NCBI RefSeq assembly: GCF_049354815.1
Contig: NZ_CP186479.1
Span: forward strand, 2,997,419 to 3,061,418
Source: Devosia sp. CN2-171
Lineage (GTDB): Bacteria > Pseudomonadota > Alphaproteobacteria > Rhizobiales > Devosiaceae
Length of the DNA: 64,000 nucleotides
Reading direction: 5' to 3'
A model generated the notes under the pieces. That model saw only the letters and a list, made by a program, of their open reading frames with translations, was not told the DNA's origin and ran no database searches. A program made the translations under genes and the position numbers. This document shows positions 4,439 through 39,076 of the stretch, one piece after another (positions within the stretch are counted from its first letter, which is position 1; each line of letters begins with the position of its first letter).

Positions 4439-4454
4439 GGTTTCACGTGAATCA
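4439..4454. promoter_or_regulatory. parS-like site GGTTTCACGTGAATCA (14/16 to TGTTNCACGTGAAACA)
   Basis: Read directly. Divergent intergenic region, OMP/esterase. Confidence 0.7.
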
Positions 4455-18998: not shown

Positions 18999-19302
18999 CG
19001 GCATTCCTCCACCGGCGTCGATGAACCAGCAGCACCGTCAGCCATATGGGCAACGCGATGAAGGCAAACCACATCCAAGTGAACGCGACGGCTCTGGACC
19101 AGAGAAGGGTACTGCCGAGAATTGGTCCCAATTCCGTCCGGCCGATCACACAGGTTGTGCCCCCCTTCAAATCGAAGGTGCAGCCATTGAGTTGCAGTAT
19201 CCAGTCGGCACCGACGGACAGTGCCAACGGCACGAGAAACGGCACCAGAATTACAGCCAGCCACCACCAATACCGACGCATTGGGAAGCGTGGGTCACTC
19301 AC
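18994..19302 (-). CDS. small 2-TM membrane protein, paralog B (PRFP N-terminus, GC...C loop, HRRRW tail)
   Basis: 102 aa. Tandem paralog of 18680-18998. Confidence 0.5.
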
Positions 19303-20036
19303 GCCGCCCTCACCTGCTTGAGCAGCGCCAGCGCTTCACGTGAATCAATGCGCCCGTCGTAAAGCGCACGACCTGAGATCGCGCCTTCGAGCACCTGGTA
19401 CTGCGGTTCGGTCATGGTCCGGATATCATCCATCGAGGCAAGCCCGCCCGAGGCGATCACCGGGATAGACACCGCCGTCGCAAGCTCCAGCGTCGAGGGC
19501 CAGTTGATGCCCTTGAGCACGCCGTCACGGTCGATATCGGTGTAGATTATCGCCGCGACCCCGGCCCCCTCGAAACGCTGGCCGAGCTCAATCGCCGTCA
19601 GCTCGGACGTTTCCGCCCAACCCTCGACCGCCACCTTGCCGCCACGCGCATCGATGCCGACCGCGACTTGCCCCGGAAACAGCCGCGCCGCTTCCCGCAC
19701 CAGCCCCGGATCACGCACCGCGACCGTGCCGAGGATGACGCGGGCGAGACCCTTGCCCAGCCAGCTCTCGATATGCGCGATGGTCCGGATACCACCACCG
19801 AGCTGTACCGGAAATTTCACCGCGCCGAGGATAGCCTCGACCGCGACGCCATTCACACTCTCGCCGGCGAACGCGCCGTTGAGATCGACGACATGCAGGT
19901 ACTCGAACCCCTGGTCCTCGAACGATTTCGCCTGCGCGGCGGGATCGTCATTGAACACGGTCGCCTGCGCCATGTCGCCCAGCTTCAGCCGGACGCACTG
20001 GCCATCCTTCAGGTCGATGGCGGGGAAAAGGATCAT
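19299..20036 (-). CDS. hisA: 1-(5-phosphoribosyl)-5-[(5-phosphoribosylamino)methylideneamino]imidazole-4-carboxamide isomerase
   Basis: [17 protein letters not shown]... SGGL. About 245 aa. The upstream extension is spurious. Confidence 0.92.
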
Positions 20037-20071
20037 GCGGAGGCTCCTGCCTGCATCGAGCGTGGGGCACA

Positions 20072-20187
20072 CCCCCTCCCAACCTCCCCCGTCAAGGGGG
20101 AGGTGCCGTTCAGTGGCTGACCCTCGATCCTGCCAAAAGCACCGGCAGACACCTCCCCCCTCGCGGGGGAGGTTGGGAGGGGGGGAG
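20072..20187. repeat. MITE/REP-like palindromic element, copy 1 (hairpin TIRs CCCTCCCAACCTCCCCC-N5-GGGGGAGGTG)
   Basis: The left TIR and the reverse-complemented right TIR are nearly identical (32 nt, 1-2 differences). Each TIR is itself a hairpin. Lies in the hisH-hisA intergenic region. Confidence 0.7.
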
Positions 20188-20202
20188 CGGCGATCACGAA
20201 AC

Positions 20203-20853
20203 TCACGGCTTCCACCGCAGAAAATTCCCAATGAGCGTCAGGCCGAGGGTCTGGCTCTTCTCAGGATGGAACTGGGTGCCCAGCATATTGTCGCGACCGA
20301 CGATGGCGGTGACGGTCTGGCCGTAGTCAGCCGACGCCACCAGCGTCTCGGGCCCGTCCGTCGCGAGGTGATAGGAGTGGACGAAATAGGCGTGCAGCCC
20401 ATTCTCGCCATCCGGGATGCCGTCGAGCAGCACATGCGGCGCGCCGAAGCGCAGCGTGTTCCAGCCCATGTGGGGCACCTTGAGTGCACCTTTGGGCTCC
20501 AGCCGCACCACCGCACCGGGAATCCAGCCGAGCCCCTTGGTGATCGCCTTCTCGCGCCCCTCGGTCGCCATCAGCTGCATGCCGACGCAGATACCGAGGA
20601 ACGGTACCCCACCCTTGATGACGCGCTCCTCGAGCACCTCGACCATGCCGGTCACGGCATCGAGCCCGGCGCGGCAATCGGCGAAGGCGCCGACGCCCGG
20701 CAGCACGATCCGGTCGGCTCGGCGGACGGCCTCGACGTCGTCGGTGACGAGAATTTCGTCGCCGGTTCCCGTCTCGCGCGCGGCGCGTTCGAAGGCCTTG
20801 GCGGCCGAGCGGAGGTTACCCGAGCCGTAGTCGATAATGGTGACGGTGCTCAT
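20203..20853 (-). CDS. hisH: imidazole glycerol phosphate synthase glutamine amidotransferase subunit
   Basis: [16 protein letters not shown]... GICVGMQ catalytic Cys, HPE. Confidence 0.93.
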
Positions 20854-23356: not shown

Positions 23357-24667
23357 ATGAGTGACACCAATTTCTCCCCGCGCGAAATCGTCGCCGAACT
23401 CGACCGCTACATCGTCGGCCAGCACGATGCGAAGCGCGCCGTCGCCGTGGCGCTGCGCAATCGCTGGCGCCGCCAGCAGCTGCCGGAAGATCTCCGCGCC
23501 GAGGTGACGCCCAAGAACATCCTGATGATCGGGCCGACCGGCGTCGGCAAGACCGAGATTTCGCGTCGGCTGGCCAAGCTCGCCCAGGCGCCGTTCATCA
23601 AGGTCGAGGCCACCAAGTTCACCGAGGTCGGCTATGTCGGCCGCGATGTCGAGCAGATCGTGCGCGACCTAGTAGAGGCCGGCATTTCGCTCCTGCGCGA
23701 CAAGAAGCGCGCCGAAGTCCAGGCGCAGGCCCATCACAATGCCGAGGAGCGCGTCCTCGATGCGCTGGTCGGCTCATCCGCCTCCCCCTCGACCCGCGAC
23801 GCCTTCCGCGCAAAACTCCGCAACAACGAGCTCGACGACAAGGAAATCGAGGTCGAGATGCAGCCCTCGGGCAATTCCGGCGGCTTCGAGATTCCCGGCA
23901 TGCCGGGCGCCAATATCGGCGTCATCAACATCCAGGACATGCTCGGCAAGGCCTTTGGCGGCCGCGGCGTCAAGCGGAAGGTCAAGGTGAAGGACGCGCA
24001 CCAGCCGCTGATCGCCGAGGAAGCCGACAAGCTGCTCGACCAGGATGCGCTCAACAAGGAAGCCGTCGACCTCGTCGAGAACCACGGCATCGCCTTCATC
24101 GACGAGATCGACAAGATCGTGAATCGCGAGGGCGGCTACGGTGGTGGCGTCAGCCGCGAAGGCGTGCAGCGCGACCTGTTACCGCTGATCGAAGGCACGA
24201 CCGTTTCGACCAAGTACGGCCCGGTGAAGACCGACCACATCCTCTTCATCGCTTCGGGCGCCTTCCACGTTGCCAAGCCCTCGGACCTCCTGCCCGAGCT
24301 GCAGGGCCGCCTCCCCATCCGCGTCGAGCTCAAGGCGCTGACCCGCGACGACCTGGTGGGCATCCTCAACGACACCGACGCCAGCCTCATCAAGCAGTAT
24401 GTGGCGCTGATGAAGACCGAGGGCCTCACCCTCGATTTCACGCCGGACTCGATCGAGGCCATCGCCGATGCCGCGGTGCATGTGAACTCGACGGTCGAGA
24501 ACATCGGCGCCCGCCGCCTCGCCACCATCCTTGAGCGGCTGGTCGAGGACATCTCGTTCGATGCGCCGGACAAGTCAGGCGAGACAATTCGCATCGACAA
24601 GGCCTATGTCGACGACCGCATCGGCAAGATGGCGGCGGACACGGACCTGAGCCGGTTCGTGCTGTAG
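23357..24667 (+). CDS. hslU: ATP-dependent protease ATPase subunit HslU
   Basis: Walker A GPTGVGKT, sensor motifs, 436 aa. Confidence 0.95.
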
Positions 24668-24681
24668 ACTGACTGCGGCCG

Positions 24682-24804
24682 AGACGGCCCCCCCATCCTC
24701 CCCCCTAAAGGGGGAGGTGTCCCGCCGGTGTGTTTGGCACAAATCGAAGACCGAAACTCGACTCTTCACCTCCCCCTTTATGGGGAGGCCGGGAGGGGGC
24801 CGTC
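24682..24804. repeat. MITE/REP-like palindromic element, copy 2 (TIRs CCATCCTCCCCCC-taaa-GGGGGAGGTG / CACCTCCCCC-tttat-GGGGAGGCCGGGAGGGGG, flanked by GACGGCCCCC/GGGGGCCGTC)
   Basis: Same TIR family as 20072-20187. The internal about 45 bp is unrelated. Lies 15 bp after the hslU stop. Confidence 0.65.
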
Positions 24805-24879
24805 TGCGAATGGCTGCAACGCGATGCCGCAACCACCCACCAGCTTGTCGAAATCCTCCCCTTCGGCGATACCCATCGC

Positions 24880-26046
24880 ATGACCCTCTTCGCCGCCGCC
24901 CGCCCCGCCGTCCAGTCCCTGCAATCCTCCCTCATCCGCGACGTCGCCAATGCCGCGATGGGCCGGACCGACGTCCTCCCGTTCTGGTTCGGCGAATCCG
25001 ACCAGCCGACCCCGCAATTCATCCGCGAAGCCGCGATGGCCTCGCTCGGCAGCGGCGAGACCTTCTACTCGCAGAATCTCGGCCGGCCGTACCTGCGCGA
25101 AGCGATCGGCACCTACCTCACCAACCTTCACGGCACGCCGGTCGATGCCGGCCGCATCGCCGCGGTCGGGTCCGGCGTCTCCGGCCTGATGCTCGCCGCG
25201 CAGATGGTGGTCTCGCCCGGCGATCGTGTCGTCGCCGTCACGCCGCTCTGGCCCAATATCGTCGAGATCCCAAAGATCCTGGGCGCCACCGTCGACCGCG
25301 TCCCGCTCACCGTCGCCAACGGCAAGTGGTCGCTCGATCTCGACGGGCTGCTGGCCGCGCTGACCCCCGACACCCGCATGGTGATCATCAACTCACCGAA
25401 CAATCCGACCGGCTGGACCATCGAGGAAGCCGAGGTCGACGCGATCCTCAGCCATTGCCGCAAGCATGGCATCTGGATTCTCAGCGACGATGTATACGAG
25501 CGGCTGGTGCACGACCCTGCCCGCAAATCCGCGCCGTCGTTCCTCCGCCGCTATCAGCCGGGCGACCGGATCATCTCGGTCAACAGCTTCTCGAAGGCCT
25601 GGTCGATGACCGGCTGGCGCATCGGCTGGCTCGTCACGCCCGAGACGCTGACCAACGATCTCGGCAAGATCATCGAATACAACACCTCATGCATCCTCGA
25701 GCCGATCCAGCGCGCCGCCACCGCCGCCGTCACCCACGGCGAACCGGAAGTGGCAAAGCTCCGCGCCCACCTCACGGCAACGCGAAACCTCCTAGTCGAT
25801 GAGCTTCGGTCACTCCCGGGCGTGGTCGTGCCGGAGGCGGGCGGGGCGATGTATGTGTTCTTCCGCATCGAAGGCCAGGACGACACGCTGGCGCTGGCGA
25901 AGCGCCTCGTCGAGGAGGCGGGCCTCGGGCTTGCCCCGGGCGGTGCGTTCGGGCCGGAAGGTAATGGCTGGCTGCGCTGGTGCCACGCGACAGAACCGCA
26001 GAAACTCCACGAGGGGATCAGGCGCCTCCGCGCTTTTCTCAGCTGA
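24880..26046 (+). CDS. pyridoxal-phosphate-dependent aminotransferase (class I, AspC-like)
   Basis: SFSKAWSMTGWRIGW PLP-lysine motif region. About 388 aa from ATG 24880. Confidence 0.82.
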   Translation: MTLFAAARPAVQSLQSSLIRDVANAAMGRTDVLPFWFGESDQPTPQFIREAAMASLGSGETFYSQNLGRPYLREAIGTYLTNLHGTPVDAGRIAAVGSGVSGLMLAAQMVVSPGDRVVAVTPLWPNIVEIPKILGATVDRVPLTVANGKWSLDLDGLLAALTPDTRMVIINSPNNPTGWTIEEAEVDAILSHCRKHGIWILSDDVYERLVHDPARKSAPSFLRRYQPGDRIISVNSFSKAWSMTGWRIGWLVTPETLTNDLGKIIEYNTSCILEPIQRAATAAVTHGEPEVAKLRAHLTATRNLLVDELRSLPGVVVPEAGGAMYVFFRIEGQDDTLALAKRLVEEAGLGLAPGGAFGPEGNGWLRWCHATEPQKLHEGIRRLRAFLS

Positions 26047-32969: not shown

Positions 32970-33041
32970 CGTGATGGAGGGATTCGAACCCTCTACAGTC
33001 AGATTACAAATCTGATGCTCTTACCCAATGAGCTACATCCA
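32970..33041 (-). tRNA. tRNA-like gene, closest to tRNA-Thr(TGT); D-, anticodon- and T-arms canonical but the acceptor stem pairs only 4/7 as read
   Basis: The reverse complement gives TA-GCTC-ATTGGGTAA-GAGC, an anticodon arm TCAGA-TTTGTAA-TCTGA and a T-arm GAGGG-TTCGAAT-CCCTC. The 5' acceptor ATGGATG does not pair fully with the 3' CATCACG. An alternative reading of the loop gives a GTA anticodon. Confidence 0.5.
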
Positions 33042-33114
33042 TGGAGCACACAGCAGGGATCGAACCCGCGACCTCCGGATCATCTCCGGCGCTCTGCCAC
33101 TGAGCTAGGTGCGC
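33042..33114 (-). tRNA. tRNA-like gene with CCA and a non-canonical shortened anticodon arm (CCGG-AGATGAT-CCGG or CCGGA-GATGA-TCCGG); possibly a pseudogene
   Basis: Canonical D-arm (GCTC-AGTGGCA-GAGC), T-arm (GCGGG-TTCGATC-CCTGC) and acceptor (6/7 pairs). The anticodon arm is 1-2 nt short and position 33 is not U. It directly abuts the downstream tRNA-like gene. Confidence 0.4.
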
Positions 33115-39040: not shown

Positions 39041-39076
39041 TGCTTATCCTCCCCCGCTCCGCAGGGGAGGATAAGG
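39041..39076. terminator. hairpin GCTTATCCTCCCC-cgctccgca-GGGGAGGATAAGG immediately 3' of secB; shares the CCTCCCC/GGGGAGG theme with the MITE TIRs
   Basis: Read directly. Confidence 0.5.

Follow-up and report, generated by a model that had tools for sequence, protein, structure and literature searches.

The closest described relatives of the repeats reported here are the BoxC elements of Escherichia coli, which are identical with the PIT elements and with TM_ECO and have the consensus CCCTCNCCC-N3-6-GGGNGAGGG-N3-GGGNGAGGG (Holder et al. 2015, PMC4666352). TM_ECO copies are always intergenic, show neither strand bias nor a link to transposons, plasmids, or phages, and occupy variable loci in related genomes; they have no preferred distance from open reading frames (ORFs) and lie more often upstream of them (PMC4666352). 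Class II intrastrand triplex motifs consist of a pyrimidine stem, a purine stem, and an antiparallel third block forming G.G:C, A.A:T, or T.A:T triads, and the ITxF search accepts stems of 6 to 15 nt with at most 1 mismatch and loops of 1 to 6 nt (Holder et al. 2015, PMC4666352). As a single-stranded DNA oligonucleotide, TM_ECO forms a stable triplex in vitro, and the purine-motif triplex cannot form in RNA (PMC4666352). Here, we describe repeats with a three-block layout of this kind in a 64,000-nucleotide stretch of Devosia sp. CN2-171 (contig NZ_CP186479.1, positions 2,997,419 to 3,061,418; referred to here as the window and numbered from its first letter). One copy (copy 1) lies between the histidine biosynthesis genes hisH and hisA, and another (copy 2) follows hslU (Table 1). 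Triplex motif repeats of the BoxC/PIT/TM_ECO type are said to have been treated by Hoyne and Maher in 2000 as well. To our knowledge, they have been recognized for about 30 years, and both their role and their multiplication are still without explanation.

Several other groups of short palindromic repeats also invite comparison. Repetitive extragenic palindromic (REP) elements and REPINs reportedly go together with REP-associated tyrosine transposases (RAYTs), as studied by Bertels and Rainey (2011) and Nunvar (2010). The CGTC-type REPs of Alphaproteobacteria have 8-bp stems and 4- to 5-nt loops and occur mostly as head-to-head dimers around structured, conserved spacers (Di Nocera 2013, PMC3733652). 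No dedicated transposase has been reported for these REPs (PMC3733652) or for BoxC/TM_ECO (PMC4666352). In Rhizobiales, the RIMEs and AB/C palindromes (Osteras et al. 1995) are described in PMC2573895 as intergenic mosaic palindromic repeats without an assigned function.

Copy 1 is a member of a Devosiaceae-wide family of non-coding intergenic palindromic repeats with three-block arms of the BoxC/PIT class, which, in our judgment, probably spreads through host functions and is carried in the his operon as a tolerated passenger. The element takes up most of the 166-nt hisH-hisA spacer (20037-20202). Its repeat strings stand exactly where the initial annotation had placed them, and both neighboring genes are supported by Pfam. 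The proposed terminal inverted repeats were borne out as well: the ends of copy 1 are inverted repeats of 39 nt (20067-20105 and 20150-20188) that are 87% complementary. A family hidden Markov model (HMM) built from 23 paired copies matches positions 20061-20198 at 92 bits with nhmmer, and the spacer RNA around the element is predicted to fold at -102.3 kcal/mol (z=-5.8). The hisH stop codon (20203-20205, minus strand) is 14-19 nt from copy 1. Gene limits were taken from a codon log-likelihood caller; an earlier GC3-based caller was dropped, as its baseline strand configuration was unrealistic.

Each arm of the element consists of a pyrimidine stem, CCTCCCCC, a loop of 4-5 nt (loop 1), a purine stem, GGGGGAGG, a loop of 3 nt (loop 2; TTG in the right arm of copy 1), and a third block, GGAGGGGG, which is an exact mirror of the purine stem. 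Written as one strand, the arm reads 5'-CACCTCCCCCTTGACGGGGGAGGTTGGGAGGGGG-3'. In an ITxF-style scan, both arms of copy 1 fit the class II sequence definition perfectly, with 8/8 Watson-Crick pairs and 8/8 mirror triads in each; both have loops of 5 and 3 nt, and loop 2 of the left arm is again TTG. Both arms of copy 2, which are slightly decayed, qualify over 7 nt with no more than 1 mismatch, and no other site in the window does so. In all, the window holds 3-4 class II motifs, compared to none in 100 second-order Markov simulations of it. The hairpin CCTCCCCC-N3-8-GGGGGAGG was observed 3 times against an expectation of 0.00 (5 against 0.01 in relaxed form), and the whole-arm pattern CACCTCCCC-N4-7-GGGGAGG-NN-GGGRGGG matched all 4 arms of the window, where 0 matches were expected. 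The GGAGG strings, which the initial annotation had likened to Shine-Dalgarno sequences, are a by-product, since a three-block layout demands a homopurine tract.

The mirror rule extends well beyond the window. Over all fetched loci (designated L with a number), a perfect mirror block accompanied 189 strand-counted hairpins, whereas a direct-repeat control gave 40. Counting every hairpin on both strands limits this measure to about 50%, so that the true share for the two commonest stem types is roughly 80-90%. A loop 2 of 3 nt was seen 143 times and one of 5 nt 39 times. Each of at least 7 stem types has its own mirror: GGGGGAGG goes with GGAGGGGG or GGTGGGGG, GGGGAGGG with GGGAGGGG or GGGTGGGG, AGGGGAGG with GGAGGGGT, and GGGAGAGG with GGTGAGGG, among others. 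Of the 36 perfect purine/pyrimidine hairpins in the loci selected by HisA, which were chosen without the use of a repeat pattern, 13 are accompanied by a perfect third block. G-quadruplex or i-motif formation and anti-Shine-Dalgarno mimicry were set aside solely because the mirror rule accounts for the third block.

Covariation among 66 copies aligned with MAFFT points to the same unit; the figures that follow count copies rather than independent events. A model with an outer stem and two local hairpins pairs 88% of alignment cells, compared to 82.8% in shuffles, and none of 500 shuffles scored as high. The local arm hairpins themselves are 97.5% and 98.7% paired, and the stem change from CCTCCCCC to CCCTCCCC affects both strands of the same arm together. 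Pairing of the left arm with the right arm, as in a single long hairpin, was rejected: it performed no better than shuffles and failed at those same switch columns. Because pairing is kept within arms and not across them, each arm is a hairpin unit in its own right; at least two sequence types exist, and these combine into homo- and heterodimers. The stem type of a hairpin predicts the register of the adjacent outer box, its third block (Fisher p=8e-10). Of 10 interpretable heterodimers, 8 keep each box in register with its own hairpin, which implies a 3-nt loop 2 in either arm, although the two boxes then mismatch each other. The box thus tracks its own hairpin, as a triplex or a protein reading this geometry would need and a simple outer stem would not.

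The arm pattern retrieved at least 119 stretches from reference genomes, mostly from Devosia, Pelagibacterium, and other Devosiaceae, and many of the matches listed are paired arms about 78 nt apart. The pattern used for reference genomes and for viral contigs already included the third block, so that the HisA-selected loci are the sole unbiased set. With the family HMM, at least 101 non-redundant Devosiaceae-like copies were obtained, 72 of the 101 being of dimer length (≥100 nt). The idea of a multi-copy, REP-like palindromic family is therefore well founded on these counts. The family element is about 110-150 bp long, with an inverted pair of arms around a conserved spacer of about 45 nt. 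Its consensus reads ...CTGACTGA-TAG-AGACGGCC-CCCTCCC-AT-CCTCCCCC-ATAAA-GGGGGAGGTG in the left half, CC.CGCCGGTG.GTTTGGCACGATCGA.G.C.....CTCGACTCTTC in the spacer, and ACCTCCCCC-TTTAT-GGGGGAGG-CC-GGGAGGG-GGCCGTCT-CTA-TCAGTCAG in the right half, the ends being CTGACTGA..AGACGGCC and GGCCGTCT..TCAGTCAG. Two subfamilies can be distinguished. Subfamily A, of which copy 2 is a typical member, has a further inverted extension of about 19 nt outside the boxes; subfamily B, which includes copy 1, is shorter and has only CACC/GGTG in this place. Spacers of individual copies are up to 85-93% identical across genomes, with a mean identity of 0.64 within genomes versus 0.47 between them.

Copy 2 begins 1 nt past the hslU stop codon when its terminal ACTGACTG (24668-75) is counted in, and its RNA is predicted to fold at -89.7 kcal/mol (z=-6.7). 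In the left arm, the mirror block is 2 nt short (CCCCCCC in place of CCCCCTCC), with 1 triad mismatch in the relaxed scan. A second copy with the same ends and an unrelated core had been annotated after hslU at 24682-24804. The copy is indeed there, and those limits are too narrow, as its outer inverted-repeat extensions lie at 24681-24689 and 24798-24806. The cores, on the other hand, are not unrelated, because both match the conserved family spacer: that of copy 2 is 83% identical to the spacer of locus L070, and that of copy 1 is 62% identical to the subfamily B copy in L065. The copy 2 spacer also has a GANTC site (GACTC, 24760-24764) beside the right arm, at a spacer position conserved in subfamily A. 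GANTC is the methylation motif of CcrM in Alphaproteobacteria.

The occupancy of the hisH-hisA junction differs among close relatives. In a metagenome scan with HisA, which gave 80 loci with HisA 75-94% identical to the query, hisH and hisA overlap by 4 nt (ATGA/GTGA; spacer of -4) in 18 loci, including L121 (HisA 94%) and L123 (92%). The spacer is +1 nt in 14 loci and 17-55 nt in about 17. Other relatives have fillings of 97-526 nt, which come from the Devosiaceae family (as in L130 and L143) and from other three-block families (as in L120, L126, and L122). Since hisH and hisA overlap in relatives whose HisA is 92-94% identical, elements of this sort are acquired and lost at the site, in keeping with a REP-like family whose presence or absence varies among close relatives at this junction. 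Four genomes with flanking genes only 71-81% identical carry the element at the his site. Relatives also differ downstream of hslU, where the complete element, two arms in right-left order, a member with one hairpin, or an ordinary hairpin together with a classic terminator can be found.

Individual junctions show further arrangements. In Devosia sp. EBPR_s431bin.24 (L119, 1140-1470), which is among the four genomes that share the element at the his site, the spacer contains three arms, an extra left-type arm lying beside the dimer, which shows duplication at the level of the arm at a fixed site. Other palindromic families built of box, linker, and hairpin occupy the hisH-hisA and hslU-downstream sites in L120, L122, L126, L129, and L131, with the forms CCCCTCACCC-[mini hairpin]-CCCCTCTCCCC..GGGGCGAGGGG and CCTTCTCCCC..GGGAGAAGG-[11-nt mini hairpin]-GGATGAGGGG; in these repeats, too, the third block mirrors the purine stem, with T.A:T allowed and a long loop 2. 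Related loci carry dimers of the GGGGAGAAGG...GGATGAGGGG type, for which the mirror rule also holds. The GGATGAGGGG-type repeats may correspond to the RIME or AB/C type of Rhizobiales. A 467-nt AT-rich insert occupies the hisH-hisA junction of L131. In a more distant clade (L156, L171, L176-L178, L187, L190, L195-L197, and L199), the junction holds a gene of about 96 amino acids for a DUF1330 protein (Pfam E=3e-31), and spacers measure 288-323 nt.

Placement relative to genes is also regular. Among the copies listed, 96 of 101 are intergenic. For 88 copies, the neighboring genes are co-directional, convergent, or divergent in 62, 22, and 4 cases, compared to 60.7, 14.1, and 13.2 expected (chi-square p=0.004); divergent promoter regions are thus avoided, and 84 of the 88 copies lie between unidirectional or convergent ORFs. 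The median distance from a stop codon to the element edge is 15 nt, with 63 of 106 distances falling within 20 nt. No orientation bias was seen, as 15 of 28 copies run in the direction of transcription, and sense and antisense RNAs are alike in predicted fold stability (24 vs 19, p=0.34) and in G-U counts (135 vs 144). Neither copy 1 nor copy 2 has a promoter-like or terminator-like signature, and the family consensus has no T-run. Apart from two tRNAs, Rfam gave no gathering-level match in the window; permissive E-values returned generic long-hairpin (miRNA precursor) matches far below threshold, and the arms of 17 distant-phylum loci gave nothing in Rfam.

When compared with known systems, the Devosiaceae family is nearest to BoxC/TM_ECO. 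Both have the same three-block layout and are G/C-rich, multi-copy, and intergenic, without strand bias or transposon link, and the loci of both vary between close relatives. In both, some inverted pairs mix two loop-2 types (TTA with CCG in E. coli, AT(G) with CC(G) in Devosiaceae). The Devosiaceae family differs in its 8-nt stem GGGGGAGG (9-nt GGGNGAGGG in TM_ECO), in the predominance of dimers with a conserved spacer, and in its alphaproteobacterial host. The literal TM_ECO consensus has 0 matches in the window and was found in 8 other loci, namely L103 (6529-6563), L105 (2899-2932), L205 (7710-7744), L127 (12607-12641), L101, L015, L059, and L108, of which L103, L105, and L205 are Devosia loci; several triplex-motif families therefore coexist in these genomes.

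Likeness to REPs, BIMEs, and REPINs is found in hairpin units of 20-40 bp that occur singly, in clusters, and as head-to-head dimers with conserved spacers, in both homo- and heterodimeric form, downstream of genes and between unidirectional or convergent ORFs, with no target duplications and with copy number and position differing between relatives. As short multi-copy palindromes that often form inverted dimers around a spacer, the Devosiaceae arms are REPs in the broad sense. The unpaired GTAG tetranucleotide that marks one end of REP units is absent from the family, and CGTC occurs only in the outer extension of subfamily A, where it does not abut the stem. The alphaproteobacterial CGTC REPs resemble the family in host class, 8-bp stems, loops of 4-5 nt, and dimers, and subfamily A has ...GGCCGTCTC with CGTC; however, this CGTC is found beyond the box, positions 1-2 of the stem are not AT, there is no CCA tail, and subfamily B is without CGTC. 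The family is thus outside the four CGTC REP families (8- to 9-bp stems starting with AT, CCA tail), and a mirror block forms no part of the REP definition. With RIMEs and AB/C palindromes, it shares, by description, the nature of an intergenic palindromic repeat in Rhizobiales. Bacterial miniature inverted-repeat transposable elements (MITEs) such as Correia, ERIC/IRU, and RU-1 are similar in length (100-170 bp), terminal inverted repeats, long hairpins, intergenic location, and frequent cotranscription, whereas the Devosiaceae repeat has separable arms and, in the sampled loci, neither a target-site duplication nor a parental insertion sequence (IS). Devosia and the arm motif do not appear in the REP survey (PMC3733652), our search found no follow-up to Holder et al. 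(2015) covering the motif, and a literature search with the arm sequence string gave only eukaryotic noise. The kind of element is already known from BoxC/PIT/triplex motifs and REP-like dimers; its stem sequence, the predominant dimers with a conserved spacer and an outer extension, the host clade, and the placement after stop codons appear to be undescribed so far.

The arm is more widely distributed than the dimer. The initial annotation had proposed a lineage-specific family, which holds for the dimer, confined as it is to Devosiaceae, and does not hold for the arm, which is also present in cyanobacteria, Prevotella, Leptospirales, Chloroflexi, Rhodocyclaceae, and others. In an AT-rich Leptospirales metagenome-assembled genome (MAG) (L056, 1896-2096; L106, 2528-2730), the arm caps a repeat of about 200 bp and is identical to that of copy 1, including the GTCAA loop. 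In Rhodocyclaceae (L080, L081, L016, L002, and L014), it lies within a multi-hairpin repeat of about 170 nt that occurs several times per locus, and in cyanobacteria (L077, L088, L069, and L045) it runs on as ...GGGGAGGTGCCGTAGGCGGTGGGG. The arm in distant phyla may go back to common descent or horizontal spread, or may have arisen by convergence on the triplex rule. Arms were also found in 21 predicted viral contigs from IMG/VR (L200-L220; 0.59-0.68 GC, Devosia-like), 8 of them with complete dimers; these may be prophages invaded by the repeats or fragments of host DNA.

No mobility gene was associated with the family in the loci sampled. All-against-all clustering of ORFs beside the copies gave only ABC-transporter and housekeeping genes as recurrent families, with no transposase. 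In 867 kb plus 816 kb of loci (~1.68 Mb), we found no RAYT-like ORF, using a YafM probe that lacked a Pfam match and nevertheless caught a cyanobacterial RAYT fragment. That fragment (L077, 6730-6948, from a Coleofasciculus MAG) spans 73 amino acids, is 44% identical to the E. coli RAYT (YafM) probe, and is flanked by ureG-like and K+-channel-like genes some 5 kb away from an arm; it is not linked to that arm and probably represents a RAYT pseudogene. The weak or fragmentary RAYT matches in L045 and L077 were set aside as unlinked to arms, and the Devosia loci gave none by tblastn and motif scans. No Y1 transposase was found in the 21 arm-bearing IMG/VR contigs. Inspection of the aligned ends of 66 copies revealed no target-site duplication, and the sampled loci contained no longer element or IS with the same termini. 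A blastn comparison with plasmid and phage records gave no match, though its low-complexity filter may mask the arms. The search for relatives thus returned further copies, without target duplications and without a cognate RAYT or IS transposase in the sampled loci.

The mechanism that we favor, that of a repeat spread by the host, would operate as follows. In a single-stranded state, as during replication, repair, or transcription, an arm may fold into its hairpin, and by analogy with TM_ECO the adjacent G-block may bind the purine strand through reverse-Hoogsteen pairs. Triplex formation by the Devosiaceae arms is thus suggested by the TM_ECO precedent. Such folded arms, or a protein reading them, might drive both spread and local instability, so that small insertions, deletions, and copy-in events would concentrate at these sites. 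The element would encode no mobility of its own, and its spread and decay would proceed through host functions. At the his locus, the copy would have moved hisH and hisA, which overlapped ancestrally (ATGA), 166 nt apart, with a new ribosome-binding site for hisA either brought along or retained, and it would be cotranscribed, giving a very stable RNA hairpin (about -100 kcal/mol). Most likely, the his copy is a tolerated passenger.

Several points weigh against this account. Double-stranded TM_ECO DNA gave no triplex, and dimethyl sulfate (DMS) footprinting in vivo was negative (PMC4666352), so that the triplex may never form in cells. Devosiaceae copies sit tightly behind stop codons, while TM_ECO shows no distance trend; this difference hints at a rule of targeting or selection that lies outside the proposed explanation. 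The outer boxes of dimers also pair with each other, and some paired changes, from CCCTCCC/GGGAGGG to CCCACCC/GGGTGGG, are equally consistent with a plain outer stem and with a triplex. The covariation figures count copies rather than independent events, and the variant arms could go back to a small number of ancestral units. Matches in other phyla have three blocks by construction, because the scan pattern held the third block, and only the HisA-selected set is unbiased in this respect. Finally, the strong turnover was recorded at two repeat-bearing junctions, those between hisH and hisA and downstream of hslU.

Alternatively, a single-copy, domesticated Y1 transposase (RAYT or TIRYT) encoded elsewhere in the genome could copy the inverted dimers, as for REPs and REPINs, with the three-block layout serving as the recognition determinant of the enzyme. 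RAYTs are typically single-copy, so that a sample of loci easily misses one, and occurrence of the arm across phyla could reflect a single enzyme clade. The head-to-head dimers with a conserved spacer of 20-100 bp, the coexistence of single units, homo- and heterodimers, and clusters, and the placement downstream of coding regions, between unidirectional or convergent ORFs and without target duplications (PMC3733652), all have REP counterparts. We nevertheless regard copying by such an enzyme as unlikely, given that the ~1.68 Mb around the copies held no RAYT-like ORF by the YafM probe, which did detect the cyanobacterial fragment; that the arms lack GTAG and, with CGTC confined to subfamily A, the other features of CGTC families; and that BoxC/TM_ECO and the alphaproteobacterial CGTC REPs themselves have no reported transposase.

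A role in RNA, as a stability element, processing element, or attenuator, had been suggested for copy 1 from its position inside the operon. On this explanation, a hairpin placed after the stop codon is under selection because it shields upstream mRNA from 3'-5' decay, sets the expression of hisH relative to hisA, or stalls terminating ribosomes, and some E. coli REPs do act in such roles. The short distance to stop codons, the small number of copies in divergent promoter regions, the extreme predicted stability of the RNA hairpins, and the persistence of the his copy at one site in four genomes with diverged flanking genes (71-81% identity) fit selection of this sort. Against it stand the even orientation (15/28), the similar sense and antisense folds and G-U counts, the lack of a U-tract, terminator signature, or Rfam family, and relatives with 92-94% identical HisA that lack the element or have a different family at the junction. 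Moreover, because a purine-motif triplex cannot form in RNA, the conserved third block is left unexplained. No evidence supports a selected RNA element, which we consider improbable; individual copies may still have such a role. The MITE reading of the initial annotation, taken in the strict sense of an internally deleted IS derivative whose terminal inverted repeats are bound by a DDE transposase acting in trans, draws on the long inverted repeats, a length below 200 bp, the many copies, and their presence/absence polymorphism. It is very improbable in view of the absence of target-site duplications from the 66 copies, the separability of the arms (which occur solo, in threes, or right-then-left), and the lack, in the sampled loci, of a longer same-ended element or a recurrent IS or transposase beside the copies, along with the absence of plasmid or phage matches. 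Unrelated local terminators that look alike by chance have next to no likelihood: G/C-rich hairpins are common after genes, and the hairpin after secB is probably one of these, but 4 arm matches against 0 expected, the conserved spacer, and hundreds of copies elsewhere rule out such a coincidence for the family.

Beyond the favored account of host-driven spread within Devosiaceae, it is conceivable, though distinctly unlikely in our view, that three-block units are an ancient, cross-phylum, self-propagating DNA motif, spread by the non-B structure itself or by one conserved enzyme that recognizes its geometry. If this were so, the non-B route might involve template switching or repair at forks stalled by the hairpin or triplex, the tendency to lie within ~15 nt of a preceding stop codon would be due to a real targeting rule, and the Devosiaceae dimers, with their filled and empty orthologous sites, would offer a tractable system. 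The Devosiaceae family provides a second, sequence-independent example of the BoxC/PIT class. Its stem variants and heterodimers serve as natural "mutants" in which the outer box tracks its own hairpin. The sharp rule of placement after stop codons, together with filled and empty sites in close relatives, means that how the repeats spread, and whether the third strand matters in vivo, can be tested by experiment in Devosia. For genome annotation, the family explains large, stable hairpins in operons that could otherwise be miscalled as terminators, small RNAs, attenuators, or MITEs.

Table 1. Positions of the two repeat copies, their parts, and adjacent features in the window
Feature	Position	Strand	Description
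Copy 1, whole element	20067..20188		Subfamily B; 122 bp, palindromic; CACC/GGTG outer stem
Copy 1, left arm	20072..20103	-	Perfect class II three-block motif when read on the minus strand; on the plus strand, CCCCCTCC 20072-79 (mirror block), CAA (loop 2), CCTCCCCC 20083-90, GTCAA (loop 1), GGGGGAGG 20096-103
Copy 1, spacer (core)	20104..20151		48 nt; subfamily B homologue (...TCGATC.TGCC....CACCGGCAGAC)
Copy 1, right arm	20152..20183	+	Perfect class II three-block motif; CCTCCCCC 20152-59, CTCGC, GGGGGAGG 20165-72, TTG, GGAGGGGG 20176-83
hisA	19299..20036	-	Downstream of copy 1; Pfam His_biosynth E=2.7e-78; codon-model gene call; ATG at 20036
hisH	20203..20853	-	Upstream of copy 1; Pfam GATase; codon-model gene call
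Copy 2, whole element	24679..24819		Subfamily A; nhmmer 120 bits; in the 212-nt hslU-aminotransferase spacer
Copy 2, outer inverted-repeat extension GAGACGGCC	24681..24689	+	Partner GGCCGTCTG at 24798-24806; kept in subfamily A
Copy 2, left arm	24688..24717	-	Partly decayed; hairpin of CCTCCCCC (24697-704) and GGGGGAGG (24710-17) intact
Copy 2, spacer (core)	24718..24768		83% identity to L070 spacer
Copy 2, right arm	24769..24799	+	7-nt register, 0 mismatches; CCTCCCCC 24769-76, TTTAT, GGGGAGG 24782-88 (one G lost), CCG, GGAGGGGG 24792-99
hslU	23357..24667	+	Upstream of copy 2; Pfam AAA_2/AAA; stop at 24667
Aminotransferase gene	24880..26046	+	Far side of copy 2 spacer; Pfam and codon-model gene call
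Plain hairpin after secB	39048..39070		Not in the family; CCTCCCC-N9-GGGGAGG, 12-bp extended stem

The hairpin after secB, which the initial annotation had taken for a solo member of the family, has only its 7-bp CCTCCCC/GGGGAGG stem in common with the arms. The structure (CTTATCCTCCCC..GGGGAGGATAAG) lies in a 55-nt gap between secB and the convergent next gene and lacks a T-run. Strict and relaxed scans found neither an outer box nor a third block in it, and it gave no match to the family HMM. It may be a bidirectional terminator-like structure or a relic arm. Two adjacent tRNA genes (32973-33114, minus strand) account for the gathering-level Rfam matches mentioned above. Elsewhere in the window, a 10-bp palindrome, TTCACGTGAA, often found inside ..GTTTCACGTGAATCC.., has 13 sites at ≤1 mismatch (9 of them exact), compared to 1.1 expected. 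The sites are at 4442, 19335, 26054, 31368, 41204, 43745, 46618, 46690, 48722, 48992, 51121, 54329, and 57920, several of them in intergenic gaps, and the palindrome could be the binding site of a regulator or another short repeat family.

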